This document shows positions 2,329 through 51,043 of a stretch of DNA of 64,000 nt, piece after piece. Within the stretch, counting starts at the first letter, position 1. Every line of letters begins with the position of its first letter. The notes beneath the pieces are model-generated. The model had not been told where the DNA came from. It saw only the letters and a list, made by a program, of their open reading frames with translations, and did no database searches. Where the stretch lies: positions 526,342 to 590,341 of the forward strand of contig JADFNM010000001.1 in assembly GCA_022563395.1 (NCBI GenBank). Direction: 5' to 3'. The stretch comes from Patescibacteria group bacterium. Lineage in GTDB: Bacteria > Patescibacteriota > Minisyncoccia > Minisyncoccales > UBA10102. A program made the translations under genes and the position numbers.

Positions 2329-2904
2329 ATGATTTCTTACCTTAAAGGAAAAGTCATAGCCCAAGGCCCAGATTATATCATAACAGAGACCGGGGGGGTA
2401 GGGTACAAGGTTTATATAGCAGAGAGCCGCCTTTCTTCTTACCCCGTGGGCAAGGAGACGGAGCTGTACTGTCATTTGCATATGAAACGAGAAGAAACCT
2501 TAGAGCTTTACGGCGTGGAGTCGCCTCAGGCGTTGGAAGTGTTTGAAACTCTAAACAATATTTCTGGTATTGGGCCAAAAGCTGCTTTGAACATTGCTTC
2601 CTTGGGTACCATGGAGCAGTTAAGGGGGGCAGTTGAAAAAGGGGATGCAAGCTATTTTGCCAAGGTTCATGGGATAGGGCAAAAAAGGATACAAAAGATT
2701 ATCCTGGAGCTTACCGGAAAGCTAAAAAGCCTGGACCAACAAAAGAATGGCAGACCAGAAGAAAAAGAGGCAGTAGATGCCTTGGTTGCTTTGGGATTTT
2801 CTCGGAAAAAGGCAAAGGAAGCGCTCTCTGAGATTTCTTCTGAAATCTCCCCTGTGGAAGAACGGGTGAAACAGGCCTTACGCCACATTCGCATATCTCC
2901 TTAA
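2329..2904 (+). CDS. ruvA: Holliday junction DNA helicase RuvA
   Basis: 191 aa with N-terminus MISYLKGKV and HhH motifs ISGIGPKAA and VHGIGQKRIQKI. The last codons and stop (ATA TCT CCT TAA) lie inside an R1 repeat flank. Confidence 0.9.
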   Translation: MISYLKGKVIAQGPDYIITETGGVGYKVYIAESRLSSYPVGKETELYCHLHMKREETLELYGVESPQALEVFETLNNISGIGPKAALNIASLGTMEQLRGAVEKGDASYFAKVHGIGQKRIQKIILELTGKLKSLDQQKNGRPEEKEAVDALVALGFSRKKAKEALSEISSEISPVEERVKQALRHIRISP

Positions 2905-2936
2905 TGAGATTAAGGATGCCTTAACGAGAGTAAGGA
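2893..2936. repeat. R1 repeat copy (two direct half-sites)
   Basis: ATATCTCC-TTAATGAGATTAAGGA-tgcc-TTAACGAGAGTAAGGA. It overlaps the ruvA stop codon. Confidence 0.7.
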
Positions 2937-2945
2937 TAGCTTTGC

Positions 2946-4229
2946 ATGCTGAATATTCTTAGAAAAGTTACCCCAAAGTTTCTCTTGAGCTGGTACCATT
3001 TTGTGTGGGCGTTAGCCGGGGCTTTGGTGTTCCGCTTTCCTGCCCGTGGCATGGTTGTTATTGGTGTGACAGGAACCAATGGGAAGTCTACCACTGTGGA
3101 CATGATTTCCCGTATTTTTAAGGAAGCTGGTTTAAACAGCGCCTCCATGTCTTCGGTTCGTTTTCAACTGAAAGATACAGAGTGGCGAAATACCATGAAA
3201 ATGACCATGCCAGGGCGTTTTGTCATCCAACAGTTCTTGCGCCAGGCAAAGACTAAGGGATGCACTCACGTGGTTTTAGAAGTGACGTCAGAAGGAATGC
3301 TCCAACATCGCCACCGCTTCATACCCTTTCACACCGCCGTCTTTACCAATCTTTCGCCAGAACACATTGAACGTCATGGTTCTTTTGAAAACTACAAGAA
3401 AACAAAAGGCAAGCTCTTTTCTCTTGCACAGGGAGTGCATGTTATCAATATAGATGATAAGCATACCCCATTCTTTCTTAAGTTCCCCGCACAAGAGATA
3501 TATACCTATGGCATATATCCTAAACGAGATTTAGGAATTCCTAAATCTCGTTTGAGCACCACACATATTCAAGGAGAAGATGTGAGAGAAAATGGGGGGC
3601 TGGATTTTAAAGCGCTGGGAACTAAATTTCATTTAGGACTTCTTGGTAGGTTTAATGTGTACAATGCTTTAGCTGCAATTGCAGTGGCACGATCTCAGGG
3701 AATCTCTCTTAAAGTTTGCAAAAATGCCCTAGAGAAAATGCAGGTGGTTCCAGGAAGAATGGAAGAAGTGATTTCTTCCCCCTTTCGGGTGGTGGTAGAT
3801 TACGCCTTTACCCCGGCTGCCTTAGAAAAAGTATACGAAACGCTTAAGCCCGCTTCTGGAAAGTTGCTCTGTGTTTTGGGAGCAGCCGGCGGAGGACGGG
3901 ATGCTTGGAAACGCCCTATCTTGGGTAAGATTGCATTGCAACATTGCAACACAGTCATCGTAACAGATGAGGATCCGTATGAAGAAAACCCAGAGAAAAT
4001 CATGGATGAGGTGATTGCGGGGGCCAAGGGAGAAGCAGAGAAGGTGCAAGATAGAAGGCAAGCTGTTGCAAAGGCATTGAGCATGGCACAAGCGGGAGAC
4101 ACCGTTGTTATTACCGGAAAAGGGTCTGAGGATTCCATGGCAGTTAAGGGAGGAAAGAAAATTCCTTGGGATGATAGAGAAGTGGTTAAAGAGGAGTGGA
4201 CGAAACTCAAAGAACGTGGTACGCTTTGA
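2946..4229 (+). CDS. Mur ligase family protein (MurE-like, short, TM-anchored)
   Basis: 427 aa. N-terminal hydrophobic helix, then P-loop GVTGTNGKSTT and a C-terminal Mur ligase domain (VITGKGSE). It lacks the N-terminal UDP-binding domain of canonical MurE. Confidence 0.75.
   Translation: MLNILRKVTPKFLLSWYHFVWALAGALVFRFPARGMVVIGVTGTNGKSTTVDMISRIFKEAGLNSASMSSVRFQLKDTEWRNTMKMTMPGRFVIQQFLRQAKTKGCTHVVLEVTSEGMLQHRHRFIPFHTAVFTNLSPEHIERHGSFENYKKTKGKLFSLAQGVHVINIDDKHTPFFLKFPAQEIYTYGIYPKRDLGIPKSRLSTTHIQGEDVRENGGLDFKALGTKFHLGLLGRFNVYNALAAIAVARSQGISLKVCKNALEKMQVVPGRMEEVISSPFRVVVDYAFTPAALEKVYETLKPASGKLLCVLGAAGGGRDAWKRPILGKIALQHCNTVIVTDEDPYEENPEKIMDEVIAGAKGEAEKVQDRRQAVAKALSMAQAGDTVVITGKGSEDSMAVKGGKKIPWDDREVVKEEWTKLKERGTL
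3519..3556. repeat. R1 repeat copy, in frame within the Mur ligase gene
   Basis: CCTAAACGAGATTTAGGAATTCCTAAATCTCGTTTGAG is translated as PKRDLGIPKSRLS. The left flank GCATATATCC resembles the common GCATATCTCC flank. Confidence 0.85.
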
Positions 4230-5568: not shown

Positions 5569-5985
5569 ATGAAAAAGAAAACAACAAGGGCAAAAAAGTC
5601 TACCAAAGTTGCCTCAACGGTGACCCGCCGAAGAGGCGGGAAGGTGGCGCCAAAGAAAAAGAAAAATCTAGGCCCGGGGCGCTCTTCGACCTCTCGCCGC
5701 GGAGGGCTCAAGGCACGCGCCCGCGAGAGACAAGCAGTTGTCTCTCGCCCCATCGGCAGGGTTTCTCATTATTTTGACAACATCAAGGTGGCAGCCATAA
5801 AACTCAAGGCCCCCCTAAAGAAAGGAGACACCATTCGTATTGAAGGGGGGACTACCCTGGTAAAAGTAAAGATTTCTTCAATGCAAAAGAACCACAAGCC
5901 CGTGGCCTCTGCCAAGGCCAGAGACGAGATTGGCATTAAGGTTTCAAAGAAAGTCCGTGAGGGGTACCGCGTCTTTAAGGTGTAA
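5569..5985 (+). CDS. Hypothetical protein, basic N-terminus plus C-terminal small beta-barrel (EF-Tu domain 2-like)
   Basis: 138 aa from the ATG. The C-terminal segment IGRVSHYFDNIKVAAIKLKAPLKKGDTIRIEG...GIKV..VREGYRVFKV resembles translation-factor-like barrel proteins. A GC-rich stretch with an 11-bp perfect hairpin (GCGAGAGACAA/TTGTCTCTCGC) lies in the N-terminal part. Confidence 0.55.
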   Translation: MKKKTTRAKKSTKVASTVTRRRGGKVAPKKKKNLGPGRSSTSRRGGLKARARERQAVVSRPIGRVSHYFDNIKVAAIKLKAPLKKGDTIRIEGGTTLVKVKISSMQKNHKPVASAKARDEIGIKVSKKVREGYRVFKV

Positions 5986-5986
5986 C

Positions 5987-6024
5987 TAAATCTCATTTAG
6001 TTGTTAACAACTAAATGAGATTTA
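5987..6024. repeat. R1 repeat copy (perfect 38-bp palindrome)
   Basis: CTAAATCTCATTTAGTTGT|TAACAACTAAATGAGATTTA(A)G has 19-bp perfect arms around GTTAAC. It lies between the stop at 5985 and the GTG start at 6031. Confidence 0.9.
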
Positions 6025-6030
6025 AGCAAC

Positions 6031-7472: not shown

Positions 7473-7513
7473 CTCCTAAATGAAATTAAAGAATCCTTAA
7501 TTTCATTTAGGAG
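7473..7513. repeat. R1 repeat copy
   Basis: CTCCTAAATGAAATTAAAGAATCCTTAATTTCATTTAGGAG has 17 perfect outer base pairs. It lies between the convergent acyP and pyrD genes. Confidence 0.9.
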
Positions 7514-11519: not shown

Positions 11520-11563
11520 CTTAAATGAAATTAAGGAATCCTTAATTTCATTTAGGAGATATG
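11520..11563. repeat. R1 repeat copy with GGAGATATG flank
   Basis: CTTAAATGAAATTAAGGAATCCTTAATTTCATTTAGGAGATATG. A partial half-site GATGAGATTAAGA lies at 11492-11504. Confidence 0.9.
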
Positions 11564-26530: not shown

Positions 26531-28288
26531 ATGATAGTTAAGCATCTAGAAAAACTTGTCCAGAGTGCGCTCAAATCCCTTAAAACCGAAGGTCTCCTTA
26601 ATGAGATTAAGGATTCCTTAATTTCGTTTGAGCATCCGGAGAACCCAGAACACGGGGATTATTCCACCAACGTTGCCCTGGTGCTAGGGAAGCAACTGAA
26701 CCAAAACCCAAGGAAAATTGCAGATTTAATACACTCAAGACTAAACATCAGAGACACAGGGTTTGTAAGCGAAATTAAGGCAGAAGGCCTCGGCTTCATC
26801 AACTTTTTCTTAAAGCAAGAGTACCTTATAGGAGAGTTGCAGGAAGTGATTAAGAAGAAAGAAAAGTATGGTCAAGGCGATGCTCAAAAGAAAAAGGTAA
26901 TGGTTGAGTTTACCGACCCCAACCCCTTCAAGGAGTTTCACATTGGGCATTTGTACAGCAATACCGTTGGGGAGAGTTTGTCTCGACTCCTTGAGGCGCA
27001 GGGAGCTCAGGTAAAGCGGGTGAACTATCAAGGAGATGTGGGGTTGCATGTTGCAAAGGCAGTCTGGGGCATGCAAAGGAATCTTGAAGAACAGCATCTC
27101 TCCCTAAAGGAGTTGGCGAAAAAAGATCTGTCAGTAAGGATGAAGTTTCTCGGGCAGTCATATGCAAAGGGGAACCAAGCGTATGAAACAGGAAACGCAA
27201 AAGAGGATATTGAAAGCTTGAATGCAAAAATCTTCGCCCTAGACAAAGAAATTAAGGAGCTTTATCAGCAAGGCAGAAAATGGAGTCTTGAATATTTTGA
27301 ACAAATCTACAAGCGCTTGGGAACCAAGTTTGACTATTACTACTTTGAAAGCGAAGTAGGAAAGGTAGGGGAAAAGCTTGTAGAAGAAGGAATGAAAAAA
27401 GGAATCTTTGAGAAAAGCCAGGGAGCAGTTATTTTTCCTGGAGAGAAATACGGCCTCCATAGCAGGGTATTCATTACTTCTCAGGGATTGCCAACCTATG
27501 AGGCAAAAGAGCTTGGGTTGGCTCCCACAAAATACAAAGACTTTAAGTATGATCTTTCCCTCATTATTACTGGGAATGAAATCATTGATTATTTTAAAGT
27601 ACTACTGGCCGCATTAAAGGAAATAAATCCAGAGCTTGGGAGAAAAACCAAGCATCTTTCCCACGGCATGGTACGTCTGCCAGAAGGCAAGATGTCGAGC
27701 CGTACCGGAAACGTTGTTACAGGGGAAGAGCTGATTGAAGAGGTAAAAGGCAGAGTACAAAAGATTATGAAGTCCTCGGGAAGCGAGATTCCCGAAAAGG
27801 AGCAGGAAGCTGCAACAGAAAGCATTGCAGTTGGGGCAGTAAAATATTCTTTGTTGAGGATCGGTCTTGGTAGAGATATCACTTTTGATTTTGATAAATC
27901 TCTGAGTTTAGAGGGGGAAAGTGGTCCATATCTTCAATACACGTATGCCAGATGCCGCAGCATCCTCCGCAAGGCAAACTTAAAGAGACTAAGTTATTCA
28001 CACCTTAAAGAAACTAAGTTGCTCCCAGAGGAGATGGCTTTGTTGAGGTTGCTGTATAGATTTCCAGAAATTGTTAGAGATGCAGCAGACAACTTTTCTC
28101 CTAATCTTGTTTGCAGCTTTGTGTTTGATATTGCCCAGGCCTACAACAACTTCTACAACACCCACCGGGTTTTGCAGGCAGAAATTGAGGAGCAAAAGAA
28201 CTTTCGCCTTGTGCTTACTGCAGCCACAGCCCAGATTATTCAGAATTCTCTCAAACTCTTGGGCATTAAAACCCCAGAGCGCATGTAA
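26531..28288 (+). CDS. argS: Arginine--tRNA ligase
   Basis: 585 aa. Motifs HGDYSTNVA, class I motif FHIGHLYS, and GKMSSRTGN, followed by a C-terminal DALR anticodon-binding domain. Confidence 0.95.
   Translation: MIVKHLEKLVQSALKSLKTEGLLNEIKDSLISFEHPENPEHGDYSTNVALVLGKQLNQNPRKIADLIHSRLNIRDTGFVSEIKAEGLGFINFFLKQEYLIGELQEVIKKKEKYGQGDAQKKKVMVEFTDPNPFKEFHIGHLYSNTVGESLSRLLEAQGAQVKRVNYQGDVGLHVAKAVWGMQRNLEEQHLSLKELAKKDLSVRMKFLGQSYAKGNQAYETGNAKEDIESLNAKIFALDKEIKELYQQGRKWSLEYFEQIYKRLGTKFDYYYFESEVGKVGEKLVEEGMKKGIFEKSQGAVIFPGEKYGLHSRVFITSQGLPTYEAKELGLAPTKYKDFKYDLSLIITGNEIIDYFKVLLAALKEINPELGRKTKHLSHGMVRLPEGKMSSRTGNVVTGEELIEEVKGRVQKIMKSSGSEIPEKEQEAATESIAVGAVKYSLLRIGLGRDITFDFDKSLSLEGESGPYLQYTYARCRSILRKANLKRLSYSHLKETKLLPEEMALLRLLYRFPEIVRDAADNFSPNLVCSFVFDIAQAYNNFYNTHRVLQAEIEEQKNFRLVLTAATAQIIQNSLKLLGIKTPERM
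26594..26632. repeat. R1 repeat copy, in frame within argS
   Basis: CTCCTTAATGAGATTAAGGATTCCTTAATTTCGTTTGAG is translated as LLNEIKDSLISFE (ArgS residues 22-34). Confidence 0.85.
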
Positions 28289-28346: not shown

Positions 28347-31226
28347 ATGGAAGTGAATTTTCCCAAGCTGGAAGAGCAAATCCTCAAGCGCTGGAGACGA
28401 GAAAAAACCTTTGTAAAATCCGTGGCAAGGAGAAAAAACTCTCCTCGCTTTGTGTTTTACGAAGGTCCTCCCACCGCCAACGGGAAACCAGGTTTGCACC
28501 ATGTGGAGTCCCGGTCTTTTAAAGACGTTGTGCTCCGCTACAAAACCATGCGGGGATTTTTTGTTCCGAGGCGTGCTGGGTGGGATACCCATGGTCTTCC
28601 TGTGGAGCTGGAGGTGGAAAAACAACTGGGGCTAAAGTCCAAAAAAGACATTGAAAAGTACGGCATAGCAAAGTTTAACGAGGAGTGCAGAAAGTCGGTG
28701 TGGAAATACAAGAAAGAGTGGGAAGAGCTCACAAACAGGGCGGGAGTATGGCTGGATACGGATAATGCGTATATTACCTATGAAACCCCGTACATTGAAA
28801 CCCTGTGGCAGATAATCAAAACCTGGTGGCAAAAAGGTCTCTTGTACAAAGACTACAAGGTAGTGCCTTTTTGCACGAGGTGCGGCACTCCCTTGTCTTC
28901 CCATGAGCTGGCCCAGGGGTACAAAACCGTAAAAGACCTTTCTGTCTATGTGAAGTTCAGGGCAAAAGGAAAGAAGCTTCCGCAAAAGACCTTCTTTCTT
29001 GCTTGGACCACCACGCCCTGGACCTTGCCTGGTAACGTTGCCTTGGCAGTAGGCAGGAATATTTCCTATGTCTTGGTAAAAAAAGACAATGAGCATTATC
29101 TCATGGCTAAAGGTTTGGCAGAGAAAGTGCTTCTAAAGTATGACGTTGTCAAAACGTTTTCTGGCAAAGACCTTGTGGGAATGAAATATGAGCCCCTGTT
29201 TTCTTTTAAAAAGCCAGAACAAGGAAAAAAGGCATGGGAAGTTGTTGCAGCAGACTTTGTTTCTACTAAGGAGGGAACCGGCATTGTGCATACCGCAGTT
29301 GCCTACGGAGTAGAGGACTTTGAGCTGGGGAAAAAAGAAAATCTTGCCATGCTCCACCTTGTGGACGAGCAAGGGAAGTTTGTAAAGGAAGCCACTCCTT
29401 TTAAAGGAAAGTTTGTAAAGGATGCTGACCCCTTGATTATAGCCGACCTGAAAAAGCGAAACCTCTTGTTCAAAGAGGAGTGGTATGAGCACGAGTATCC
29501 TTTTTGTTGGAGATGCTCCACACCATTGCTGTATTATGCAAAGGAAACATGGTTTATAAACATGCAGAAGGTGAAAAAACAACTCTTGGCAAACAACAGG
29601 AAGATAAACTGGATTCCAGGACACTTAAAGGAAGGCAGGATGGGAGAATGGCTAAAGGAGGTGAAGGACTGGGCGTTTTCCCGAGAACGGTACTGGGGAA
29701 CTCCATTGCCCATTTGGGAGTGCACCATGTGCGAAGAAAAAGAGGTTATCGGCTCTGTAAAAGAACTGCTTTCAAAGAAGCTTTTGCAAAACCCCTACAA
29801 AGGAAAGAAAGATATTGACTTGCACCGGCCGTATGTAGATGAAGTGGAGTTTCCTTGCACAAACTGCAAGGGAATCATGAAGAGGGTAAAGGATGTGGTG
29901 GATGTTTGGTATGATTCTGGTGCCATGCCCTTTGCCCAAAACCACTGGATGGGAGAAAAGAAACCAAAAGAGTTTCCTGCAGACTATATTGTAGAAGCCA
30001 TAGACCAGACCAGGGGTTGGTTCTATACCCTGCTTGCAGTATCCACGCTTCTTGGTTTTGGTCCCCCGTTCAAGAATGTTATCTCTTTGGGTCATCTGTT
30101 GGACGCAAAGGGAGAAAAGATGTCTAAGTCCAAGGGTAACGTGGTGAATCCTTGGGATGTGGCAGACAAATACGGCATGGATGCGGTGCGCTGGTACTTC
30201 TTTTCTGTAAATCATCCCTGGGACCCGAAGCTTTTTTCCGAGCGAGACCTTCAACAGACCTTAAGAAAGTTTATCTTAACCCTGTGGAATTCCCTGGCGT
30301 TCTATGAAACGTATAATCCTAAACGAGATTTAGGAGTTCCTAAATCTCGTTTAAGCGAGAATGTGCTGGATCAATGGATCGTGTCTCGCTTAAACACAAC
30401 CACAGCAGACATGACAAGGAAGATGGACGAATACGATATTACAGGAGCTGCCCGCGCCTTGGAATCTTTTGTTATTGAAAATCTTTCTCTGTGGTACATT
30501 CGAAGATCGAGAAGCAGGTTTCAGAACCCCAAAAGCAAGAAGGAATTGCAGGATGCGGTTTCAACCCTTGGATATGTACTTTTTCAGACAAGCTTGCTTT
30601 CTGCCCCGTTTATTCCTTTTTTGAGCGAGGTTGTGTTTGAGAAAAGCAATGGAAAAGGGAGCGTACACTTGCAGGATTGGCCCTTCGACCCAGCTCAGGA
30701 TAAACCAAAAGCCCCAAAACAAGATAAAAAATTAGAACAGGAGATGGAGAAAGTACGGCACATTGCAAGCAAAGGGCTGGCCTTGAGGGCAAAGGCGGGT
30801 CTTCGGGTGCGCCAACCCTTGGCAAAACTCACCATAAAAGAAAAACTTCAAAAAGAATTGCTGCTTTTGCTTCAAGATGAGTTAAACGTAAAAGAAGTGG
30901 TGGTGAGCTCAAAGCTTAAAGGGGATGTGCAGTTGGACACCAAACTTACGCCTCAATTAAGAGAAGAGGGGCTGGTGCGGGAGTTGTTGCGCCATATTCA
31001 GGGCATGAGAAAAGATGCAGGGTATAAGCCGCGCCATCGCGTTCGGTTGCGCTATGCCGGGACAGCCGACGTCAAAAATCTGTTTTCTCGCCACAAAGAA
31101 ACCCTTGTAAAGATTGGAGGCATCACAGAACTTTTGGAAGGAGACCGCCCCAAACAGGTGTTTGATATTGAGAAAACAATAAAGATTGGAGGAAAGAAGC
31201 TGTGGCTCGGCATCCGCAAGATTTGA
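28347..31226 (+). CDS. ileS: Isoleucine--tRNA ligase
   Basis: 959 aa from ATG 28347. The 1051-aa track ORF is an upstream extension that overlaps argS. Motifs PPTANGKPGLHH, an editing domain, and KMSKSKGN. Confidence 0.95.
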   Translation: MEVNFPKLEEQILKRWRREKTFVKSVARRKNSPRFVFYEGPPTANGKPGLHHVESRSFKDVVLRYKTMRGFFVPRRAGWDTHGLPVELEVEKQLGLKSKKDIEKYGIAKFNEECRKSVWKYKKEWEELTNRAGVWLDTDNAYITYETPYIETLWQIIKTWWQKGLLYKDYKVVPFCTRCGTPLSSHELAQGYKTVKDLSVYVKFRAKGKKLPQKTFFLAWTTTPWTLPGNVALAVGRNISYVLVKKDNEHYLMAKGLAEKVLLKYDVVKTFSGKDLVGMKYEPLFSFKKPEQGKKAWEVVAADFVSTKEGTGIVHTAVAYGVEDFELGKKENLAMLHLVDEQGKFVKEATPFKGKFVKDADPLIIADLKKRNLLFKEEWYEHEYPFCWRCSTPLLYYAKETWFINMQKVKKQLLANNRKINWIPGHLKEGRMGEWLKEVKDWAFSRERYWGTPLPIWECTMCEEKEVIGSVKELLSKKLLQNPYKGKKDIDLHRPYVDEVEFPCTNCKGIMKRVKDVVDVWYDSGAMPFAQNHWMGEKKPKEFPADYIVEAIDQTRGWFYTLLAVSTLLGFGPPFKNVISLGHLLDAKGEKMSKSKGNVVNPWDVADKYGMDAVRWYFFSVNHPWDPKLFSERDLQQTLRKFILTLWNSLAFYETYNPKRDLGVPKSRLSENVLDQWIVSRLNTTTADMTRKMDEYDITGAARALESFVIENLSLWYIRRSRSRFQNPKSKKELQDAVSTLGYVLFQTSLLSAPFIPFLSEVVFEKSNGKGSVHLQDWPFDPAQDKPKAPKQDKKLEQEMEKVRHIASKGLALRAKAGLRVRQPLAKLTIKEKLQKELLLLLQDELNVKEVVVSSKLKGDVQLDTKLTPQLREEGLVRELLRHIQGMRKDAGYKPRHRVRLRYAGTADVKNLFSRHKETLVKIGGITELLEGDRPKQVFDIEKTIKIGGKKLWLGIRKI
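30318..30355. repeat. R1 repeat copy, in frame within ileS
   Basis: CCTAAACGAGATTTAGGAGTTCCTAAATCTCGTTTAAG is translated as PKRDLGVPKSRLS. Confidence 0.85.
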
Positions 31227-37946: not shown

Positions 37947-37949
37947 TTG

Positions 37950-38019
37950 TTGATATTGCCTAAACGTGTTGATATTGCCTAAACGAGATTTAAGCATGAG
38001 TGCTTAAATCTCGTTTAGG
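37950..38019. repeat. R1 repeat copy with a tandemly duplicated left edge
   Basis: TTGATATTGCCTAAACG occurs twice, 19 bp apart (37950-37966 and 37969-37985). It is followed by the palindrome CCTAAACGAGATTTAAGCA-tgag-TGCTTAAATCTCGTTTAGG (37978-38019). Confidence 0.85.
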
Positions 38020-38036
38020 AGAACTTCGGTAGAACT

Positions 38037-39008: not shown

Positions 39009-39009
39009 A

Positions 39010-39038
39010 TTGGAAAAGCAAGGATTTTGTGCTACAAG
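39010..39038 (+). promoter_or_regulatory. Promoter TTGGAA-N17-(TGc)TACAAG, 6 nt upstream of the metG ATG
   Basis: Read directly from the sequence. No SD lies before ATG 39045. Confidence 0.5.
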
Positions 39039-39044
39039 AACAGC

Positions 39045-40487: not shown

Positions 40488-40510
40488 CCCGCTTCAGCGG
40501 GCGACGGCCC

Positions 40511-40554
40511 GCATATCTCCTAAATGAAATTAAAGAATCCTTAATTTCATTAAG
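40511..40554. repeat. R1 repeat copy with GCATATCTCC flank
   Basis: GCATATCTCCTAAATGAAATTAAAGAATCCTTAATTTCATTAAG. It is preceded by the small GC hairpin GCCCGC-TTCA-GCGGGC (40487-40502). Confidence 0.9.
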
Positions 40555-40566
40555 TTTTTATAGGGC

Positions 40567-40595
40567 TTGACGTATTTCTTTGTATGGTGTATATA
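40567..40595 (+). promoter_or_regulatory. Sigma70-like promoter TTGACG-N17-TATATA
   Basis: Read directly from the sequence. The ATG of a 26-codon ORF follows 8 nt after the -10 box. Confidence 0.5.
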
Positions 40596-40603
40596 GTTTT
40601 ATT

Positions 40604-40684
40604 ATGAACAATTTTCCAGCCAGGAAGTTTATTAGCATCTTGGTCTTGGACCTCCGTAAACGGTTGGGAGATTTTGTTGCATAG
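40604..40684 (+). CDS. Candidate leader peptide (26 aa, MNNFPARKFISILVLDLRKRLGDFVA)
   Basis: Short ORF between a promoter and a terminator. It covers the 5' strand of a putative antiterminator. Confidence 0.3.
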   Translation: MNNFPARKFISILVLDLRKRLGDFVA

Positions 40685-40706
40685 ATTCACCTCTTTGAAA
40701 ACAAAC

Positions 40707-40739
40707 GAAACCTCCCAACCACGGGAGGTTTCTTCTTTT
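40707..40739 (+). terminator. Intrinsic terminator with a competing upstream antiterminator
   Basis: 10-bp stem GAAACCTCCC / GGGAGGTTTC followed by TTCTTTT. GGTTGGGAG (40662-40670) is perfectly complementary to CTCCCAACC (40712-40720). Confidence 0.7.
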
Positions 40740-40828
40740 GCCCTGAAAATTGTTTATTGCGACGTAGATAATTTTCAGGCCAAAACAGTGGTCTGAGAAA
40801 AACTGTACCTTCAAGGAGAGGGAAAGCG

Positions 40829-41017
40829 ATGGAGTCTAGGGATCCCGTTCTTATACAGAGGTTTGGTAATCAAGTCTCAGAGGTTGAAAGTCTTCGGCGT
40901 AAATCACAACGCCCAGGACTCTCTCTTCATCAACGGAAAGGCCTTGGGTTTCACTTACAACGCGCAGAAAGAAACATGCAACACACCAGAGACCTGCTGG
41001 GGTCTAGTCTTCCTTAG
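40829..41017 (+). CDS. Orphan 62-aa basic ORF (doubtful)
   Basis: The SD AAGGAG lies 11 nt upstream, and a terminator lies at 41045-41075. No recognisable motif. The region could instead be non-coding RNA. Confidence 0.25.
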   Translation: MESRDPVLIQRFGNQVSEVESLRRKSQRPGLSLHQRKGLGFHLQRAERNMQHTRDLLGSSLP

Positions 41018-41044
41018 GGGCATGTTTTTTCTCCTTACGAGGAA

Positions 41045-41075
41045 GGGCTCGCCTAAAAAGCGAGCCCACTTTTTT
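41045..41075 (+). terminator. Intrinsic terminator
   Basis: Stem GGGCTCGC / GCGAGCCC with loop CTAAAAA, followed by ACTTTTTT. Confidence 0.75.
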
Positions 41076-41081
41076 AGCTCA

Positions 41082-41090
41082 TGGTACAAT
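41082..41090 (+). promoter_or_regulatory. Extended -10 box TGgTACAAT, 6 nt upstream of the tatD ATG
   Basis: TGGTACAAT, then gtggat, then ATG at 41097. Confidence 0.5.
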
Positions 41091-41096
41091 GTGGAT

Positions 41097-42035
41097 ATGC
41101 TAATAGATACCCACGGACACGTCAACTTTGCCGCTTTCAAGAATGACGCAAAAGAGGTTCTGCACCGTACCTTGAAAGGAGATACCTGGGTTATAATGCC
41201 AGGCACCCAGTATGCTACCTCAAAGAAAGCAGTAGAAATGGCAGAGCAGTATAGAGAAGGAGTGTATGCCGCAATTGGTCTGCACCCTATTCATCTTTCA
41301 GAAAAGCGCAAGGTTGATGTATTGGAAGTGCAGTCAGAAAACACCAAGGAGGAAGAATGGATGACCTTTGAAACACAAGAGGAGGAGTTTTTGTATGAAA
41401 AGTACAAAGAATTGGGACAAAGCAAAAAGGTGGCGGCAGTCGGTGAGTGCGGCCTGGATTATTACTATGAACCAAAGAGCAAAGAAAGAAGAGAAGCTCA
41501 ACGGCGTAAACAAAAGGCAGCGCTTGCCTTGCAACTGAAGTTGGCAGACGAGCTAAACTTGCCGATTATTTTCCATTGCCGCAAGGCACATGATGATTTG
41601 ATTGAATTTCTAACAAACTACAAACTACAAACTAAAAATTTGAGAGGTGTCGTGCACTGCTACACTGGAGACTTAAAACAGGCAGAGCAGTTCTACAATA
41701 TTGGCCTCTCTTTTGGGTTTAACGGCCTTATTTTCAAAGATGTTCCTGCGCTTCCCAATCCAAAGGAGATTATTGGAGCTTTACCCTTGGAGCGAATTGT
41801 TCTGGAAACTGATTCTCCCTACTTACTGCCGCCCTTGCCCGCCGACCCGGCCTCCGTAGCCACTTCGGCGAAGGGGGCAGCTTTAGCGAAGGCGGGACAG
41901 GCAGGACGCAACGAACCCCTGTTTGTAAAATATGTAGCAGAGGAGATAGCTCGTATTAAAGGTATCTTAGTAGACGAAGTTTCCTCTGCGACAACCAAAA
42001 ACGCCAAAGCCTTATTTCGCTTAAATGAGATTTAG
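41097..42035 (+). CDS. tatD: TatD family metal-dependent deoxyribonuclease/hydrolase
   Basis: 312 aa from ATG 41097 (the track ORF from 40863 is an upstream extension). Motifs IDTHGH, GECGLDYY, HCR, VHCYTG and ETDSPYL. It contains an F2 insertion, and its stop codon lies in an R1 copy. Confidence 0.9.
   Translation: MLIDTHGHVNFAAFKNDAKEVLHRTLKGDTWVIMPGTQYATSKKAVEMAEQYREGVYAAIGLHPIHLSEKRKVDVLEVQSENTKEEEWMTFETQEEEFLYEKYKELGQSKKVAAVGECGLDYYYEPKSKERREAQRRKQKAALALQLKLADELNLPIIFHCRKAHDDLIEFLTNYKLQTKNLRGVVHCYTGDLKQAEQFYNIGLSFGFNGLIFKDVPALPNPKEIIGALPLERIVLETDSPYLLPPLPADPASVATSAKGAALAKAGQAGRNEPLFVKYVAEEIARIKGILVDEVSSATTKNAKALFRLNEI
41832..41906. repeat. F2 GC-rich repeat copy, in frame within tatD (75 nt)
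   Basis: Encodes PLPADPASVATSAKGAALAKAGQAG between the conserved SPYLLP and RNEP. It contains GCGAAGGCGGG (41886-41896) and AGCTTTAGCGAAGG (41879-41892). Confidence 0.7.
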
Positions 42036-42061
42036 GTGTGGATAACTAAATCTCGTTTAAG
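42020..42061. repeat. R1 repeat copy (tatD / mutY-like convergent junction)
   Basis: CTTAAATGAGATTTAGG-tgtggataa-CTAAATCTCGTTTAAG. The tatD stop TAG (42033-42035) lies inside the left arm. Confidence 0.85.
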
Positions 42062-42066
42062 CGAGA

Positions 42067-42876
42067 TTAGAGGGAATAGAAGTTTCTTTTCTTTTTTATG
42101 AGGCCATCTTTTTCTAAAGAGGCAAGAATCTTTTCTGGCACATAGGGGCTCTTCGCTTTTTTGAGCAGTCGCTGGATTTTGCTTGCAGTGGCAGTTTGAT
42201 TTGGCTGGTCTAAGAGAAAGCGCATTACTTTGGTGCGAAACGAGCGGAGAGAACCTTCAAATCTGCTTTGCTTTGCATAGTGCTTGCTTTGCTTGTTTAT
42301 CTTTTTGTCTTTGAGAACCGTTGCCCCGTAGTCAAAGAGGGCATAGTGCCATTGTCGAGGATTCTTTTTCCACACTGCCTTTTCTGCAATATGCAGAATC
42401 TCTTTGTCTGACACGTCTTTCTTTTTTGGAAAGAAAAAGTGCAGGTATACTCTTCTGATGTTTGTATCTAAGAATGCGTCTTTGTTTTGAAAAGCAAAGC
42501 AGGCGATAGCCCCAGCAGTGTAAGGACCAATGCCAGGGAGTTTTTGTAAGTCCTTAGGGTTTTCAGGAAACTTTTCTTCATGACTCTTTATTATCTCCTT
42601 TGCAGCTTTCTTTAAAGAAAGGGCACGTTTCCAGTATCCAAGGCCTCGCCAAACTTTAAGGAGTTTTCCATCTGGAGTTTTTGCAAGAGATTGCAAGGTT
42701 GGGAACTCTTTGAGAAACTCTTTGTATTTGGGAAGGACTCTTGCAACCTGGGTCTGTTGAAGCATGACCTCAGACACCAATATCTTGTAGGGGTTGTCGG
42801 TTTCTCTCCAGGGCATATCCCTTTGGTTCTTTTTGCGGGAATCTAAGATGAGTTTTTGGAACTTGGGAATGGTCAT
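42067..42876 (-). CDS. HhH-GPD DNA glycosylase, MutY/Nth-like, without a recognisable Fe-S cysteine cluster
   Basis: 269 aa. Motifs PWRET.NPYKILVSEVMLQQTQV, HhH-GPD LPGIGPYTAGAI, and catalytic-region DTNIRRV. No C-x6-C-x2-C-x5-C motif is seen. Confidence 0.65.
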   Translation of the reverse strand: MTIPKFQKLILDSRKKNQRDMPWRETDNPYKILVSEVMLQQTQVARVLPKYKEFLKEFPTLQSLAKTPDGKLLKVWRGLGYWKRALSLKKAAKEIIKSHEEKFPENPKDLQKLPGIGPYTAGAIACFAFQNKDAFLDTNIRRVYLHFFFPKKKDVSDKEILHIAEKAVWKKNPRQWHYALFDYGATVLKDKKINKQSKHYAKQSRFEGSLRSFRTKVMRFLLDQPNQTATASKIQRLLKKAKSPYVPEKILASLEKDGLIKKKRNFYSL

Positions 42877-42932
42877 GAACCCATTTTAGCACAATGGACA
42901 AATAAGGGGGGATTGGCTACAATCTGTGTATT

Positions 42933-45344
42933 ATGACGCGCTACGAGCATGAGAAAATAGAGGCAAAGTGGCAGAAACGCTGGGAGAAAAAGAAGGCCTG
43001 GGAGGTGGATTTGGACAAGGCAAAAAAGCCCTACTATAACTTAATGATGTTCCCCTATCCTTCAGCAGAGGGGCTGCATGTAGGGAATGTCTATGCCTTT
43101 ACCATCTCTGACATTCATGGAAGGTTCCGCAGAATGCAGGGATATGATGTGTTTGAGCCCATGGGGTTTGATGCCTTTGGCATTCATTCAGAAAACTTTG
43201 CCATTAAACAGGGGACGCACCCAAAAGAGCAGACTGCAAAGAACATTACGCACTTCACAAAACAGCTCAAGCAATTGGGAGCTCTTTTTGATTGGCAAAG
43301 AGCAGTTATTACCAGTGACCCCGAATACTACAAATGGACCCAGTGGCTGTTTGTGCAACTCTACAAAGCAGGTCTGGCATATAAGGGGAAAGCCCCTGTT
43401 GACTGGTGTCCTTCTTGCAAGACCGTGCTGGCAGATGAGCAGGTTATAGAAGGGCAATGCGAACGATGTGACACTCAGGTTGTGCAAAAGGAATTGGAGC
43501 AGTGGTTTTTTCGCATTACCAAGTATGCGGACCGCCTATTAAAAAACTTGGAGTGGATTGACTGGACCGAAAAGACCAAACTCGCGCAAAGAAACTGGAT
43601 TGGAAAGGCAGAAGGCACAACCATAAAATTCAAAGTTCCCAATTCCAAGCATGAGGTTGAAGTCTTTACGACGCGTGCCGATACGCTTTACGGCGCAACG
43701 TTTATTGTTTTAGCACCAGAACACCCCATGGTAGCTTCCCTCCAAAACTCAAAAGAGGTTCAAAAGTATGTAGAGAAATCAAAGCAGAGAACCGAACTGG
43801 AAAGAAAAGCCGAGGAAAAAGAAAAAACAGGCGTTTTCTCGGGCCTGTACGCGATAAACCCGCTCAACAAGGAAAAAATTCCTGTTTGGATTGCTGATTA
43901 TGTGTTAATGGGTTATGGAACAGGTGCCTTGTTTGGAGATGCTCACGACGAGCGTGATGTCGAATTTGCTAGAAAGTATAACATTCCACTCAAACCCACC
44001 GTAATCACAGGAGATAAAGAGAAAGACCGGAAGATCTTAAGCCTTGAAGAATGTTTTACAGGTTATGGCACCTTAGTGGACTCTGGTCCATTTACAGGCT
44101 TGACCTCAAAGGAAGCAATAGCAAAAGTGATGGAGTGGCTTATCAGGAAAGGACAGGGCGGGCGGAAAGTAACGTACCACCTCAGAGATTGGCTTATCTC
44201 TCGTCAGCGCTACTGGGGGTCTCCCATCCCTATTATCTATTGCGCAAAATGCGGCACGGTTCCGGTTCCAGAAAAAGACCTTCCGGTAAAGTTACCCGAG
44301 GTAAAGGATTTTCGACCTTCTGGCACGGGTAAGTCGCCCTTGGCTTCCGTTGCGAGCTTTGTGAAAACCAAGTGCCCTCAATGTAAAGGGCCAGCTGAGA
44401 GGGAAACAGATGTTTCAGACACGTTTTTAGATTCAGCCTGGTATTTTTTCCGCTATCCCTCAACCGAGTTTAAAACAAAACCTTTTGATAAGGTAAGGGT
44501 AAAGAAGTGGCTTCCTGTGAATATGTACATTGGAGGGCACGAGCACGCTGTCTTGCACCTCTTGTACACCAGATTCATTACTATGGCCCTAAAAGACATG
44601 GGACACATTTCTTTTGAGGAACCCTTTGAGAAATTCCGCGCCCACGGTTTAATCACCAAAGGCGGGGTAAAGATGTCCAAATCCAGAGGGAACGTGGTGA
44701 ACCCAGACGAGTACTTTGTAAAGTACGGCGCAGACACGGTGCGTACCTATTTAATGTTTCTGGGTCCTCTGGCAGATGGGGGAGGTTGGTCAGACAGGGG
44801 AATCGTTGGCATCTCCCGGTTTTTCAACCGTCTCTGGGTATTTGTGCCTAAATCTCGTTTAGGAGATCCTAAACGAGATTTAGGAAATGAGGCCTTGCGG
44901 CATAGAACAATCAAGAAAGTTACTGAAGACCTAGAGAATCTGCGATATAACACCGCAATTGCAGCTTGCATGGAATATTTTAATGCCCTTCAAAAATCCA
45001 GCAATCCAACAAAAGAAGAGACAGATACTTTACTCATTCTTCTTTCGCCTTTTGCCCCTCATTTAACGCAAGAACTCTGGGAAAAACTTGGCAACAAGGG
45101 AAGTGTGCATGACCAACCTTGGCCAAAGCATGACCCAAAGGCATTGCAGGAAAAAGTTGTTCGGCTTGTGGTACAGGTGAATGGAAGAGTCAGAGAAGTT
45201 CTTTTAGTTTCTCCCGGCATTTCAGAAAAGGAGGCTGTTGCTCGGGCGCTGCAGCAAGAAAAGGTAAAGAAATGGTTCCCCACGGGAAAGCCAAAGAACG
45301 TGGTGTTTGTGAAAGGAAGATTACTAAATCTTGTATCGTATTAA
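42933..45344 (+). CDS. leuS: Leucine--tRNA ligase
   Basis: 803 aa. Motifs MFPYPSAEGLHVGN, a CP1 editing domain, and VKMSKSRGN. Confidence 0.95.
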   Translation: MTRYEHEKIEAKWQKRWEKKKAWEVDLDKAKKPYYNLMMFPYPSAEGLHVGNVYAFTISDIHGRFRRMQGYDVFEPMGFDAFGIHSENFAIKQGTHPKEQTAKNITHFTKQLKQLGALFDWQRAVITSDPEYYKWTQWLFVQLYKAGLAYKGKAPVDWCPSCKTVLADEQVIEGQCERCDTQVVQKELEQWFFRITKYADRLLKNLEWIDWTEKTKLAQRNWIGKAEGTTIKFKVPNSKHEVEVFTTRADTLYGATFIVLAPEHPMVASLQNSKEVQKYVEKSKQRTELERKAEEKEKTGVFSGLYAINPLNKEKIPVWIADYVLMGYGTGALFGDAHDERDVEFARKYNIPLKPTVITGDKEKDRKILSLEECFTGYGTLVDSGPFTGLTSKEAIAKVMEWLIRKGQGGRKVTYHLRDWLISRQRYWGSPIPIIYCAKCGTVPVPEKDLPVKLPEVKDFRPSGTGKSPLASVASFVKTKCPQCKGPAERETDVSDTFLDSAWYFFRYPSTEFKTKPFDKVRVKKWLPVNMYIGGHEHAVLHLLYTRFITMALKDMGHISFEEPFEKFRAHGLITKGGVKMSKSRGNVVNPDEYFVKYGADTVRTYLMFLGPLADGGGWSDRGIVGISRFFNRLWVFVPKSRLGDPKRDLGNEALRHRTIKKVTEDLENLRYNTAIAACMEYFNALQKSSNPTKEETDTLLILLSPFAPHLTQELWEKLGNKGSVHDQPWPKHDPKALQEKVVRLVVQVNGRVREVLLVSPGISEKEAVARALQQEKVKKWFPTGKPKNVVFVKGRLLNLVSY
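44847..44885. repeat. R1 repeat copy, in frame within leuS (perfect 17-bp arms)
   Basis: CCTAAATCTCGTTTAGG-agat-CCTAAACGAGATTTAGG is translated as PKSRLGDPKRDLG. Confidence 0.9.
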
Positions 45345-45345
45345 A

Positions 45346-45380
45346 CTTAATGAAATTAAGGAATCCTTAATTTCATTAAG
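45346..45380. repeat. R1 repeat copy (perfect 35-bp palindrome), flank supplies the glmS SD
   Basis: CTTAATGAAATTAAGGAATCCTTAATTTCATTAAG is followed by GAGATATTCAT-ATG. The sequence AAGGAG ends 8 nt before ATG 45392. Confidence 0.9.
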
Positions 45381-45391
45381 GAGATATTCAT

Positions 45392-47224
45392 ATGTGTGGA
45401 ATTGTTGGTTACATTGGTCACAGCACAGATATTCGCATTGGCATGGAGGCTTTAAAGCGCCTGGAGTACCGGGGGTATGATTCAGCTGGCATGGCGGTGT
45501 ACAACAAAGACAGAAAAGAGGTGGATTCGGTAAAAGCGGTAGGAAAGGTGGCGAACCTTGAAGAAAAGCTCCAGGGAATGAATCTGAAAGGCAGCCCTTT
45601 TCTCTTCTATACCAGGTGGGCCACCCACGGGGGAGTGACAGAAGAAAACTGTCATCCTCACACTGACTGTAAGCAAAATATATGGGTGGCGCACAACGGA
45701 ATTATTGAGAACTACCGCCAGCTCAAAGAAGAGCTTTCAAAAGAAGGCCATGTTTTTGTTTCTGAAACAGACACCGAAGTAATTCCTCACTTAATAGAAA
45801 AGTTCTTTGAAGGAAATCTGGAAGAAGCAACAAGAAAAGCCTTGTCTTCGGTTCGGGGAGCGTACGCCTTGGCAATCATTGCAAAAGACGATCCAGAAAA
45901 ACTGGTCTTAGCAAAATACTCCGCCCCCCTGCTCATTGGCCTGGGAAAAGACGAGTATCTGGCAGCCTCCGACCCTTCTGCGGTCATTACCCATACCAAC
46001 AAGGTGGTGTATTTGGAAGATGGTGAGCTTGCGGTATTGACCCCAGAAAGCTTCTCTATTCAGGACTACCGACAAAACCATGTATCAAGGCAAGCAGAAA
46101 AGATTGATTGGAGCTTGGAGGATGCCAAAAAGGGCGGATATGCGCATTTCATGCTCAAAGAAATTATGGAGCAGCCAGAGAGCATTCAAAATGCCTTACG
46201 AGGGAGAATGGTTGCACAAGAGGGTACTGCAAAGCTTGGTGGGCTTGAGGATATGGAAGAAAAGCTCAGAGAAATTGAGCGCGTACAGATTTTAGCTTGT
46301 GGCACTGCTTCTTTTATGGGGAGAGTTGGGGAGTACATGATTGAAGAGTATGTAGGCTTATCCTGTGAGGTGGACATTGGTTCTGAGTTTCGGTATCGAA
46401 AACCAGTTATCGACAAGAGAACACTTACCATTGCTATCTCTCAGTCTGGGGAAACAGCAGACACGCTAGCTGCCCTTAAAGAAGCAAAGCGGAAAGGGAG
46501 CCCTACGGTGGGAATCGTAAACGTGGTGGGCTCTTCTGTTGCAAGAGAGGTGGATGTAGGCGTGTACACTCATGCTGGACCAGAAGTTGCAGTTGCCTCT
46601 ACCAAGGCCTCTACTGCCCAGCTTGCGGTTCTTTCCCTTCTTACTTTGTTTTTGGGAAGACAGCGCCAGCTTTCTCTTGTGATGGGACAACGCATTGCAA
46701 AGGAACTTTCTCGCATACCCGAACTTGTCAAAAGTATTCTGGAGCGAGACGAGGAAGTAAAAAGAATCGCAGAAAAATACAAAGAGGTAACGAACCTTTG
46801 GGTTATAGGACGCAAGTACAATTATCCTATTGCCTTGGAAGGCGCTTTGAAAATCAAGGAAACCTCTTATGTACACGCAGAAGGCATAGCTGGAGGAGAG
46901 CTGAAACATGGCGCCTTGGCTTTGGTTGATGAAGATTTTCTCACCATAGCCATTGTTCCCTCAGATTCTGTGTATGAAAAGATGATTTCTAATATTCAAG
47001 AAATAAAAGCAAGAAAGGGGCCGGTGGTTACAATTGCCACTGAAGGCAACAAAGATATTGCATCCATTGCAGATGACGTAATCTATATCCCAAAAACCCT
47101 AGAAATGCTTACCCCTATTCTTTCTGTTATTCCCTTACAGCTCTTTGCCTATTATATGGGAGTATTGAAAGGATACGATGTAGACAGGCCAAGGAACCTT
47201 GCAAAGTCAGTGACGGTAGAGTAA
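45392..47224 (+). CDS. glmS: Glutamine--fructose-6-phosphate aminotransferase
   Basis: 610 aa. N-terminal nucleophile MCGIVGY, two SIS domains, and C-terminal KSVTVE. Confidence 0.95.
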   Translation: MCGIVGYIGHSTDIRIGMEALKRLEYRGYDSAGMAVYNKDRKEVDSVKAVGKVANLEEKLQGMNLKGSPFLFYTRWATHGGVTEENCHPHTDCKQNIWVAHNGIIENYRQLKEELSKEGHVFVSETDTEVIPHLIEKFFEGNLEEATRKALSSVRGAYALAIIAKDDPEKLVLAKYSAPLLIGLGKDEYLAASDPSAVITHTNKVVYLEDGELAVLTPESFSIQDYRQNHVSRQAEKIDWSLEDAKKGGYAHFMLKEIMEQPESIQNALRGRMVAQEGTAKLGGLEDMEEKLREIERVQILACGTASFMGRVGEYMIEEYVGLSCEVDIGSEFRYRKPVIDKRTLTIAISQSGETADTLAALKEAKRKGSPTVGIVNVVGSSVAREVDVGVYTHAGPEVAVASTKASTAQLAVLSLLTLFLGRQRQLSLVMGQRIAKELSRIPELVKSILERDEEVKRIAEKYKEVTNLWVIGRKYNYPIALEGALKIKETSYVHAEGIAGGELKHGALALVDEDFLTIAIVPSDSVYEKMISNIQEIKARKGPVVTIATEGNKDIASIADDVIYIPKTLEMLTPILSVIPLQLFAYYMGVLKGYDVDRPRNLAKSVTVE

Positions 47225-47257
47225 GCTGATATATCCAAAAGAAAGGGGGGACACTTA

Positions 47258-47743
47258 ATGTTTACCGTGAGGTCAATGCGGAAAGAAGACCTTGGCATCG
47301 TCGCCCAGCTGAACAAAGAGTGCTTCCCCGAGGATAACAGCACCTTGACGGATGCACGAGAGTGGATTGAGGCCAATTGGAAAGCTGCGCCCCGGACCTC
47401 CTACTTTGTTCTTATAGACGAAGAGGGGCAGGTTGAAGGATACATCCTCTGGTTGGAAAAGGGAGGATTCCGCAAGGAGGCAGTGCTCGAGCTTGAGCAG
47501 ATAGCGGTTATACCCTCTCAGAGAGGAAGGGGTGGAGGTAGGACACTTATCCAGCAAACCCTTCCCCAGCTCAAGGAGAGGCTTGCGCTCCAAGGGCGCA
47601 CCATCAAGCTCATTGAGGTGACTACAGCCGCAGACAACGAGGCGCAACGCCTCTATCGTGATACTCTTGGGGCTGAGGTAGAGGCTACGATTCACGACCT
47701 ATTTAGGGGAAACGAAGTCATCATGGTCGCGAGAAATCTGTAG
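47258..47743 (+). CDS. GNAT family N-acetyltransferase
   Basis: 161 aa with the acetyl-CoA motif IAVIPSQRGRGGGRTLI. GC-richer than its neighbours, with the SD AAAGGGGGG. Confidence 0.8.
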   Translation: MFTVRSMRKEDLGIVAQLNKECFPEDNSTLTDAREWIEANWKAAPRTSYFVLIDEEGQVEGYILWLEKGGFRKEAVLELEQIAVIPSQRGRGGGRTLIQQTLPQLKERLALQGRTIKLIEVTTAADNEAQRLYRDTLGAEVEATIHDLFRGNEVIMVARNL

Positions 47744-47804
47744 TTGTTTCGCATAAAGAACTGGGGCCCCCCACCCCAGTTCTCATTCTATCTGGGTATT
47801 TTTC

Positions 47805-49891: not shown

Positions 49892-49922
49892 GTTACTAGA
49901 TCCAAAAAGCTAATTACAAACT

Positions 49923-50615: not shown

Positions 50616-50684
50616 TTTGTCAGGGGGTATCTTTGATCTTAAGCCCTATGAAGGGCCCTTATTTTGCCTAAAAGTTTTCCACCA

Positions 50685-50712: not shown

Positions 50713-50719
50713 GATATAA

Positions 50720-50962: not shown

Positions 50963-50994
50963 CCAAAGAAAACTGATATACTAAAAAAGAAATC

Positions 50995-51043
50995 ATCGCA
51001 TATCTCCTAAACAAAATTAAGGAAAACCTTAATTTTGTTCAGG
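50995..51043. repeat. R1 repeat copy (variant) with GCATATCTCC flank
   Basis: ATCGCATATCTCCTAAACAAAATTAAGGAAAACCTTAATTTTGTTCAGG. Confidence 0.85.

Follow-up and report, generated by a model that had tools for sequence, protein, structure and literature searches.

The palindrome in the leucyl-tRNA synthetase gene

This study concerns a short palindrome that is translated within the gene of leucyl-tRNA synthetase (LeuS; LeuRS where the enzyme is compared across species) in a genome of the Patescibacteria. The gene lies in a 64,000-nucleotide stretch of contig JADFNM010000001.1 (positions 526,342 to 590,341 of the forward strand), which was analysed as a whole and is called the window here. The palindrome occupies 38 nt (44847-44884) and consists of two perfectly complementary 17-nt arms around a 4-nt centre (Table 1); a repeat finder extends the arms to 18 nt with 100% complementarity and 2 nt between them. 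It begins at offset 1914 of the open reading frame (ORF), which is divisible by 3, and is read in frame as the peptide PKSRLGDPKRDLG (residues 639-651). The repeat starts three residues past the conserved Trp of RFFNRLW and lies directly ahead of the anticodon-binding domain, since Pfam places the beginning of Anticodon_1 at residue 657. In an alignment with E. coli LeuRS, the site corresponds to a variable loop, 31 aa long in E. coli versus 21 aa here, which joins the last helix of the catalytic body to the anticodon-binding domain. The loop placement was taken from this alignment and not from a poor AlphaFold2 model (18-sequence alignment, mean predicted local distance difference test score 50), in which residues 636-650 are weakly indicated as a coil between two helices. 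A preliminary description of this DNA had reported perfect 17-bp arms with a 4-nt spacer, in frame at offset 1914 and located in a variable linker ahead of the anticodon-binding domain, and our analysis confirms the arms and frame on the sequence and the placement through Pfam and the E. coli alignment.

The LeuS protein of the window is identical to P0001 in public data, and since an identical palindrome, at an unchanged LeuS offset, was met in five more public assemblies of this species, it is not an assembly artefact. The strains were looked up by exact protein, a procedure that can return only palindrome-bearing copies and hence shows reproducibility, not presence or absence. Two of these five assemblies (L095 and L097) differ from the window only at LeuS positions 1386, 1389 and 1392; the three changes are synonymous, clustered within 7 nt and far from the palindrome, giving two sequence variants in total. 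Upstream of LeuS, a promoter-like TGGACA-17-TACAAT (window 42895-42923) is kept in all relatives (L081, L082, L084, L093 and L103). Just upstream of this motif, a near-identical palindrome of the CCTTAGTCTCGCTAAGG type was noticed in L082, L084 and L103, and the window is without it.

Distribution and architecture of the repeats

With up to three mismatches allowed, the window contains the LeuS 17-mer 20 times, where 0.19 occurrences would be expected; none of 100 shuffles reached this number. At least 13 copies sharing one architecture were recognized, comprising seven intergenic copies, two over stop codons and four in frame. The latter sit in MurE, ArgS, IleS and LeuS, all of them essential genes, whose ORFs are intact and display full Pfam architectures despite the repeats. 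Though the window is mostly coding according to the ORF map, nine of the 13 copies lie either outside coding sequence or at its edge. The membership of the palindrome in a dispersed family that is translated in frame, as proposed in the preliminary description, is thus well founded.

Each copy is built from a 17-nt half-site as the repeat unit, which is itself a small hairpin (CCTAAA-N5-TTTAGG), and two half-sites 4 nt apart make up a 38-nt nested palindrome. Twelve of the 13 copies are inverted doublets and one is a direct doublet. Half-sites are almost always paired, with only two to three possible unpaired ones in the window (3621-3637, 54182-54198).

The element has a single open frame, CCT AAA ... 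TTA GG, giving P-K-x-x-L-G, and the other two frames meet TAG or TAA. As it is a palindrome, the other strand reads alike, and all in-gene copies of the R1 subfamily therefore share one frame. In other genomes the same peptide is obtained from copies on either gene strand (L087 minus, L092 plus). A metagenome scan for CCTAAA-N5-TTTAGG-N4-CCTAAA-N5-TTTAGG yielded eight loci, four of which were useful, with in-frame copies in TsaD and MurD. The remaining four (L085, L088, L090 and L091) were set aside as unrelated tandem arrays of CCCTAAA...TTTAGGG at contig ends; these arrays have a period of about 21-22 nt and CCCTAAA-N5-TTTAGGG units with cores in both orientations, a geometry that resembles the half-site.

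Table 1. The LeuS palindrome, its host gene and the other copies of the repeat in the window
Feature	Position (strand)	Details
LeuS in-frame palindrome	44847..44884 (+)	arm A 44847-44863 CCTAAATCTCGTTTAGG; centre 44864-44867 AGAT; arm A' 44868-44884 CCTAAACGAGATTTAGG
Host gene, leucyl-tRNA synthetase (LeuS), 803 aa	42933..45344 (+)	Pfam tRNA-synt_1, editing domain, Anticodon_1
MurE in-frame copy (ORF 2946..4229)	3519..3556 (+)	CGAGA core first; encodes PKRDLGIPKSRLS; palindrome-free relatives 8 aa shorter
IleS in-frame copy	30318..30355 (+)	CGAGA core first; encodes PKRDLGVPKSRLS
ArgS N-terminal-domain copy, R2 subfamily	26596..26632 (+)	different frame; encodes LLNEIKDSLISFE; absent from L099, net +11 aa
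Direct-orientation copy, both half-sites the same way	2899..2935 (+)	RuvA stop codon 2902-2904 inside
Copy between convergent TatD and HhH-GPD genes	42020..42061 (+)	TatD stop 42033-42035 in left arm
R2 copy filling the LeuS-GlmS spacer	45346..45381 (+)	provides AAGGAG at its right end, 9 nt ahead of the glmS ATG
Intergenic R1 copy	37978..38019 (+)	19-nt perfect arms
Intergenic copy	5985..6026 (+)	LeuS-like arm order (TCTCA first)
Intergenic R2 copy	7475..7511 (+)	
Intergenic R2 copy	11520..11556 (+)	
Intergenic R2 copy after MetS	40519..40555 (+)	
Intergenic copy	51006..51043 (+)	

The right ends of several intergenic copies (TTTAGG or TTAAGG, then AG) form a Shine-Dalgarno-like AAGGAG or AGGAG 8-15 nt before the next start (45377-45392 for glmS, 11552-11573, 2931-2948 and 38017-38039), and such ends may supply or sequester ribosome-binding sites. 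The stop codons of RuvA and TatD fall within palindromes (CCTTAA at 2899-2904; TTTAGG in 42020-42035), and the C-termini of both proteins are for this reason partly repeat-encoded; the LNEI with which TatD ends recurs in LLNEIK, the in-frame peptide of ArgS. Three copies have an extended left flank, (T)CGCATATCT, in common (2886-2898, 40506-40518 and 50993-51005), and the right flank AGATAT is found at two. The complete consensus element may for this reason measure about 50 nt, with the LeuS copy keeping the inner 38 only. Among the other genes of the window, ORF 16765-17919 fuses HisG (ATP phosphoribosyltransferase) to an AsnC-type helix-turn-helix and an AsnC ligand-binding domain, which is an unusual architecture.

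The LeuS site among relatives

A palindrome of 17+4+17 nt was observed at the identical LeuS codon boundary in seven species, with a different sequence in each. It is perfect in six of the seven, and every change on an arm has its counterpart on the other. The LeuRS proteins of the six palindrome-carrying relatives are 66-86% identical to that of the window. These are L081 (86%; CCTAGGTCTCGCCTAGG-AGTT-CCTAGGCGAGACCTAGG), L084 (84%; CCTAAATCCGATTTAGG-AGCT-CCTAAATCGGATTTAGG), L082 (76%; CCTAAACTCGGTTTAGG-AGCT-CCTAAACCGAGTTTAGG), L001 (76%; GCTAAGCCGAGCTTAGC-AACT-GCTAAGCTCGGCTTAGC), L102 (67%; CCTAAGCTAAGCTTAGG-AGCT-CCTAAGCTTAGCTTAGG) and L103 (74%; as L081 but with one mismatch). In a five-sequence alignment of the site, all 85 of 85 pair cells are Watson-Crick, 11 of the 17 pairs change on both sides, and G-U pairs number zero; the 6-bp stems of the mini-hairpins also covary. 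The LeuS proteins of the window and L081 align without a gap over 803 aa, with 58% identity at fourfold sites, and their palindromes are identical at 29 of 38 positions, having diverged about as much as the flanks, yet symmetrically. Since the codon boundary is shared by the relatives' palindromes and the element has changed about as far as its surroundings, the LeuS slot is, as judged from these comparisons, old and not recently hit, and its symmetry is evidently kept actively instead of being a mark of youth. The preliminary description had read the perfect symmetry as the sign of a recent event, which cannot be upheld with same-codon palindromes in six relatives at such distances. No clear spike of identity, as expected of a recombination tract, was seen around the LeuS palindrome between L081 and L103.

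Tandem duplications stand directly 3' of the LeuS palindrome in L084 (4912-4941, 15 nt, GATTTAGGCAGAGAG twice) and in L001 (3995-4018, 12 nt, TTAGCAAGCGAG twice), and partial duplications of 3-5 aa were noticed in IleS orthologues (PKLLPKLSLG..., PKPGLGKLG). These duplications suggest slippage associated with the hairpin.

In three genomes, copies at different sites resemble each other more than copies of the same slot do between genomes. The LeuS copy and the copy at the TatD end agree at 30 of 34 arm positions in the window, at 32 of 34 in L082 and at 34 of 34 in L102, where the two elements are identical over 38/38 positions, spacer included. Comparatively, when the same slot is compared between these three genomes, only 20-28 of the 34 arm positions match.

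With regard to the level at which the symmetry is kept, the centre of the element is AGCT in four genomes; as AGCT is self-complementary, the dyad runs through the centre and no loop is left. The imperfect copies harbor 13 G.U versus 19 A.C mismatches, that is, no excess of G.U. On account of the AGCT centre, the complete lack of G-U pairs at LeuS and this mismatch count, our data point to a symmetry kept at the DNA level rather than by selection on an mRNA hairpin.

Arm order and length of the host genes

The TCTCG core comes first in LeuS and the CGAGA core first in MurE and IleS, so the opposite arm order that the preliminary description had noticed is real for both comparisons. Its explanation, that a palindrome had been inserted in either orientation, is wrong, because the inversion of A-s-A' (two arms and a spacer) gives A-rc(s)-A', where rc stands for the reverse complement, and leaves the order unchanged; A-A' and A'-A are different elements. 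All three arrangements of half-sites occur, namely both inverted orders and the direct one at 2899-2935. One-arm forms are found at the same sites in relatives (P0006 for LeuS, P0248 and P0260 for MurE), and even at LeuS, L082 and L001 do not have the same arm order. From the direct copy, the one-arm forms and this difference in order, the half-site is evidently the unit of the repeat. One period, 17+4 = 21 nt, corresponds to 7 codons, and arms can therefore be gained or lost in frame. We also considered an arm order that is fixed for each slot, and rejected it; it fits the window versus L082 but fails at the TatD end of L084 and at LeuS between L001 and L082.

The LeuS linker measures 21 aa with the palindrome (window, P0002 and P0035), up to 31 aa in others that have adjacent small tandem duplications, 19-20 aa without the palindrome and 31 aa in E. 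coli LeuRS. The preliminary description had allowed that a lack of any indel relative to close relatives would refute its reading, and orthologue alignment at LeuS shows essentially none of the clean 39-bp kind. The IleS linker is approximately constant in all relatives, from perfect palindromes through decayed remnants, with a net change of about 0. At ArgS, the window, L100 and L101 carry the copy that L099 lacks; MurE has 427 aa with the palindrome and 419 aa without it; and the LeuS-GlmS spacer, repeat-filled in the window and L084, amounts to only a few nt in L001, L002 and L006. By these length comparisons, the family evidently does insert elsewhere, at ArgS, MurE and intergenic sites.

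Interpretation and alternative explanations

Our data are probably best explained if the 38 nt in LeuS are one copy of a dispersed group of nested palindromes of the Wildermuthbacteria (Parcubacteria, candidate phyla radiation, CPR) lineage, similar to repetitive extragenic palindromic (REP) sequences and their doublets (REPINs), which is kept symmetric, periodically overwritten by DNA-level copying and tolerated in frame. Copies would persist where they are harmless, between genes, over stop codons and inside genes. Survival within a gene would need one stop-free frame and a length-tolerant surface linker, for which the LeuRS loop would qualify. The dyad symmetry may be held by templated correction from arm to arm, such as hairpin or template-switch repair of quasi-palindromes, and a slot would now and then be overwritten by the dominant copy of the genome through short-patch conversion or enzymatic re-insertion. 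The reversed arm order could arise from the freedom of half-sites to stand either way round; they would be gained and lost in steps of 21 nt (7 codons), or the 5-nt cores would flip between the flanking 6-nt inverted repeats.

Several observations weigh against this explanation. The LeuS and TatD-end slots are unlike in L084 (18/34) and L103 (15/34), so that homogenisation is not universal, and in close relatives ordinary point mutations are eroding the IleS copies; for these two reasons, homogenisation must be called episodic. The LeuS palindrome nets only +1-2 aa over palindrome-free orthologues, with no clean indel of 13 aa or 39 bp, and simple insertion does not predict sites that are near length-neutral, as those of LeuS and IleS are. 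A neighbour-joining tree of LeuS is too rough to tell whether the palindrome colonised the site repeatedly or was present ancestrally and then lost. No transposase, REP-associated tyrosine transposase (RAYT) or integrase is present among the approximately 55 ORFs of the window, which are ordinary housekeeping genes, and we infer the mobilising or converting activity entirely. Neither a GTAG or CGTC tag nor a target-site duplication was detected at the copies.

A tyrosine recombinase (Phage_int_SAM_1 and Phage_integrase, 8079-9005) was observed in the TatD/HhH-GPD slot of L082 (also L083), within 7841-9073. Its gene is flanked by palindromes at 7841-7882 and 9029-9073, and other genomes hold the palindrome alone there. 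Going by its domains and setting, this recombinase could be the mobilising enzyme or simply XerC/D. A scan of viral contigs for two half-sites gave no link to phages; all that came up were solitary 17-mers in large phage genomes, consistent with chance.

The explanation in terms of REPIN-like copies may be carried further, though we do so tentatively and hold the outcome to be doubtful. It is conceivable that the repeats belong to a class of ultra-short (38-nt) nested-dyad elements, perhaps present in other CPR too, which occupy fixed slots, some of them in the reading frames of essential aminoacyl-tRNA synthetases, stay symmetric and are periodically brought back to the master sequence of their lineage by a mechanism dedicated to this at the DNA level, and that slot-preserving overwriting, not ordinary transposition, is their mode of spread. 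Candidate agents could be a hairpin-recognising recombinase, an HUH enzyme, or else a dimeric factor for DNA binding or uptake, its specificity co-evolving with the 5-nt core.

The main rival is a dyad-binding or uptake factor with co-evolving specificity. According to this explanation, the palindromes are DNA sites selected by the host, either the binding site of a dimeric protein or a species-specific DNA-uptake signal spread by biased uptake and homologous recombination, and the 5-nt core co-evolves with the protein, so that sites change in place without indels. We regard it as unlikely, although a considerable part of the data agrees with it: slots do change in place with their boundaries kept and without net length change at LeuS and IleS, cores are lineage-specific and common to several sites per genome, the dyad is complete through the AGCT centre with G-U pairs absent at LeuS, and both half-site orders plus one direct arrangement are tolerated. 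However, nearly all copies are inverted pairs and not single motifs, unlike known uptake sequences; genuine indels exist at ArgS, MurE and intergenic sites; some genomes carry different cores at different slots; and a specified motif of 34 nt is improbable by point mutation. The number of candidate proteins identified is zero. Selection on the RNA, in which the hairpin would stabilise the mRNA or mark a site of processing, form 3' ends of a terminator-like kind between genes, or pause translation at the domain boundaries of aminoacyl-tRNA synthetases (aaRS), appears improbable. The hairpin predicted for LeuS is very stable (minimum free energy -29.3 kcal/mol, z = -6.7), covariation is strong, intergenic copies directly follow stop codons or lie between convergent genes, and in-gene copies are located at domain linkers. 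The copies are nevertheless not intrinsic terminators, because they have no U-tract and their stem is not GC-rich; a terminator scan of 36000-52000 called no family copy, and canonical terminators (e.g. 40707-40732) look different. In an Rfam search of the window only the tmRNA and two tRNAs reached the gathering score, and no family copy matched. The mismatch and G-U counts given above, the self-complementary centre that leaves no loop, and the symmetry of the mini-hairpins, an extra constraint needless for a long RNA hairpin, likewise disagree with a role of the RNA. The RNA genes of the window itself are the tmRNA, which adjoins smpB (25596-25951 (-) and 26043-26489 (-)), tRNA-Arg(CCG) at 5446-5520 and tRNA-Leu(CAA) at 57873-57957.

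The model of the preliminary description, a palindromic mobile element that entered LeuS recently, oriented the other way round from the copies in MurE and IleS, and added 13 residues, is very improbable. It draws on the perfect LeuS arms, which are 17/17 identical to those of MurE and IleS, and on the indels that the family does yield in ArgS and MurE; but sequence logic alone tells that inverting a palindrome does not swap its arms, the same codon is occupied in species down to 66% LeuRS identity, the net gain is +1 to +2 aa instead of 13, and the palindrome has diverged like its flanks in the gapless comparison with L081. Selection of the encoded peptide itself (P-K-x-x-L-G twice), with DNA symmetry as a by-product, is scarcely credible. 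A hydrophilic peptide rich in P and G does recur in LeuS, IleS, MurE, MurD and TsaD. Against this, most copies are non-coding, the ArgS copy in its different frame gives an unrelated peptide, the peptide varies freely between species while the DNA symmetry stays, and synonymous freedom is unused.

Whichever process operates, differently spelled symmetric palindromes at the same LeuS or IleS codon in many species amount to a natural experiment on palindrome correction and copy-to-copy conversion in uncultivated bacteria. Moreover, the 13-residue PKxxLG segments are non-homologous filler, which can mislead alignments of aaRS markers and phylogenies.

Comparison with known repeat systems

REP sequences and REPINs are short palindromic units in inverted doublets that are mobilised by RAYT transposases (Bertels & Rainey 2011, PMC3116915; bioRxiv 10.1101/2021.07.10.451892). 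The repeats described here resemble them in their inverted doublets forming a long hairpin, their dispersal in many copies mostly outside genes, the compensatory changes in the hairpin, the within-genome master sequence and the long vertical persistence. They differ in having 38 nt with a centre of 0-4 nt, whereas REPINs measure roughly 60-120 nt, in the half-sites that occur in both orders, in the contact of a third of the copies with coding sequence and in the four copies translated inside essential genes. REP ends also bear a conserved GTAG or CGTC tetranucleotide (PMC3733652). In the flanks of all 13 copies, no GTAG/CTAC or CGTC/GACG was detected beside the stem, and the recurrent flank is ATATCT...AGATAT. 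The cognate RAYT is an IS200/IS605-like Y1 transposase, usually flanked by its own REPs. No Y1_Tnp was found among the approximately 55 ORFs within the 64-kb window.

Several other systems of small repeats share single traits with the family. MITEs, or miniature inverted-repeat transposable elements, have terminal inverted repeats and a target-site duplication, are derived from insertion sequences (IS) and are about 100-400 bp long. The LeuS copy is not bordered by direct repeats (left GTATTTGTG, right AAATGAGGC), the element measures 38 nt, and the window contains no IS. The small dispersed repeats (SDR) of cyanobacteria, said to have been described by Elhai et al. in 2008, are reportedly 21-27 nt long, palindromic, seemingly mobile without an obvious transposase, sometimes nested and occasionally located in genes. 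If so, both are extremely short palindromic dispersed repeats, sometimes nested or in genes, with different sequences and from different phyla; to our knowledge, conservation of slots with lineage-specific sequence has not been described for SDR. The DNA uptake sequences (DUS) of Neisseriaceae and the uptake signal sequences (USS) of Pasteurellaceae are mostly single, asymmetric and 9-12 nt long, are enriched in both orientations and have a cognate competence receptor. They share with our repeats species-specific dialects, frequent occurrence in tolerant coding segments without indels and inverted pairs at gene ends, but our family consists almost wholly of 17+17 dyads and does show real indels. 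Protein-coding palindromic repeats are, as far as we know, textbook matter only for Rickettsia, and for CPR bacteria our literature search yielded no account of such elements.

The Rickettsia palindromic elements (RPEs) are in-frame palindromic repeats in unrelated housekeeping genes, including aaRS-type enzymes (Ogata et al. 2000, 2002, as summarised in PMC10969869). Taken as that summary presents them, they agree with the present repeats in being translated in frame and tolerated in surface regions with the host ORFs intact. On the same account, RPEs are about 100-150 bp long, add 30-50 residues and are clear insertions, while the repeats here encode 13 residues, are near length-neutral at LeuS and IleS, appear to be continually re-symmetrised and belong to an unrelated phylum (Patescibacteria/CPR). 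In summary, the element works like REPINs and the Rickettsia RPEs but fails defining features of both, with no GTAG tag, no RAYT in the window and a length of only 38 nt. The presence of such much shorter repeats in four essential genes of a streamlined CPR genome indicates that reading frames can house selfish or structural DNA, and that ultra-small genomes are no exception.

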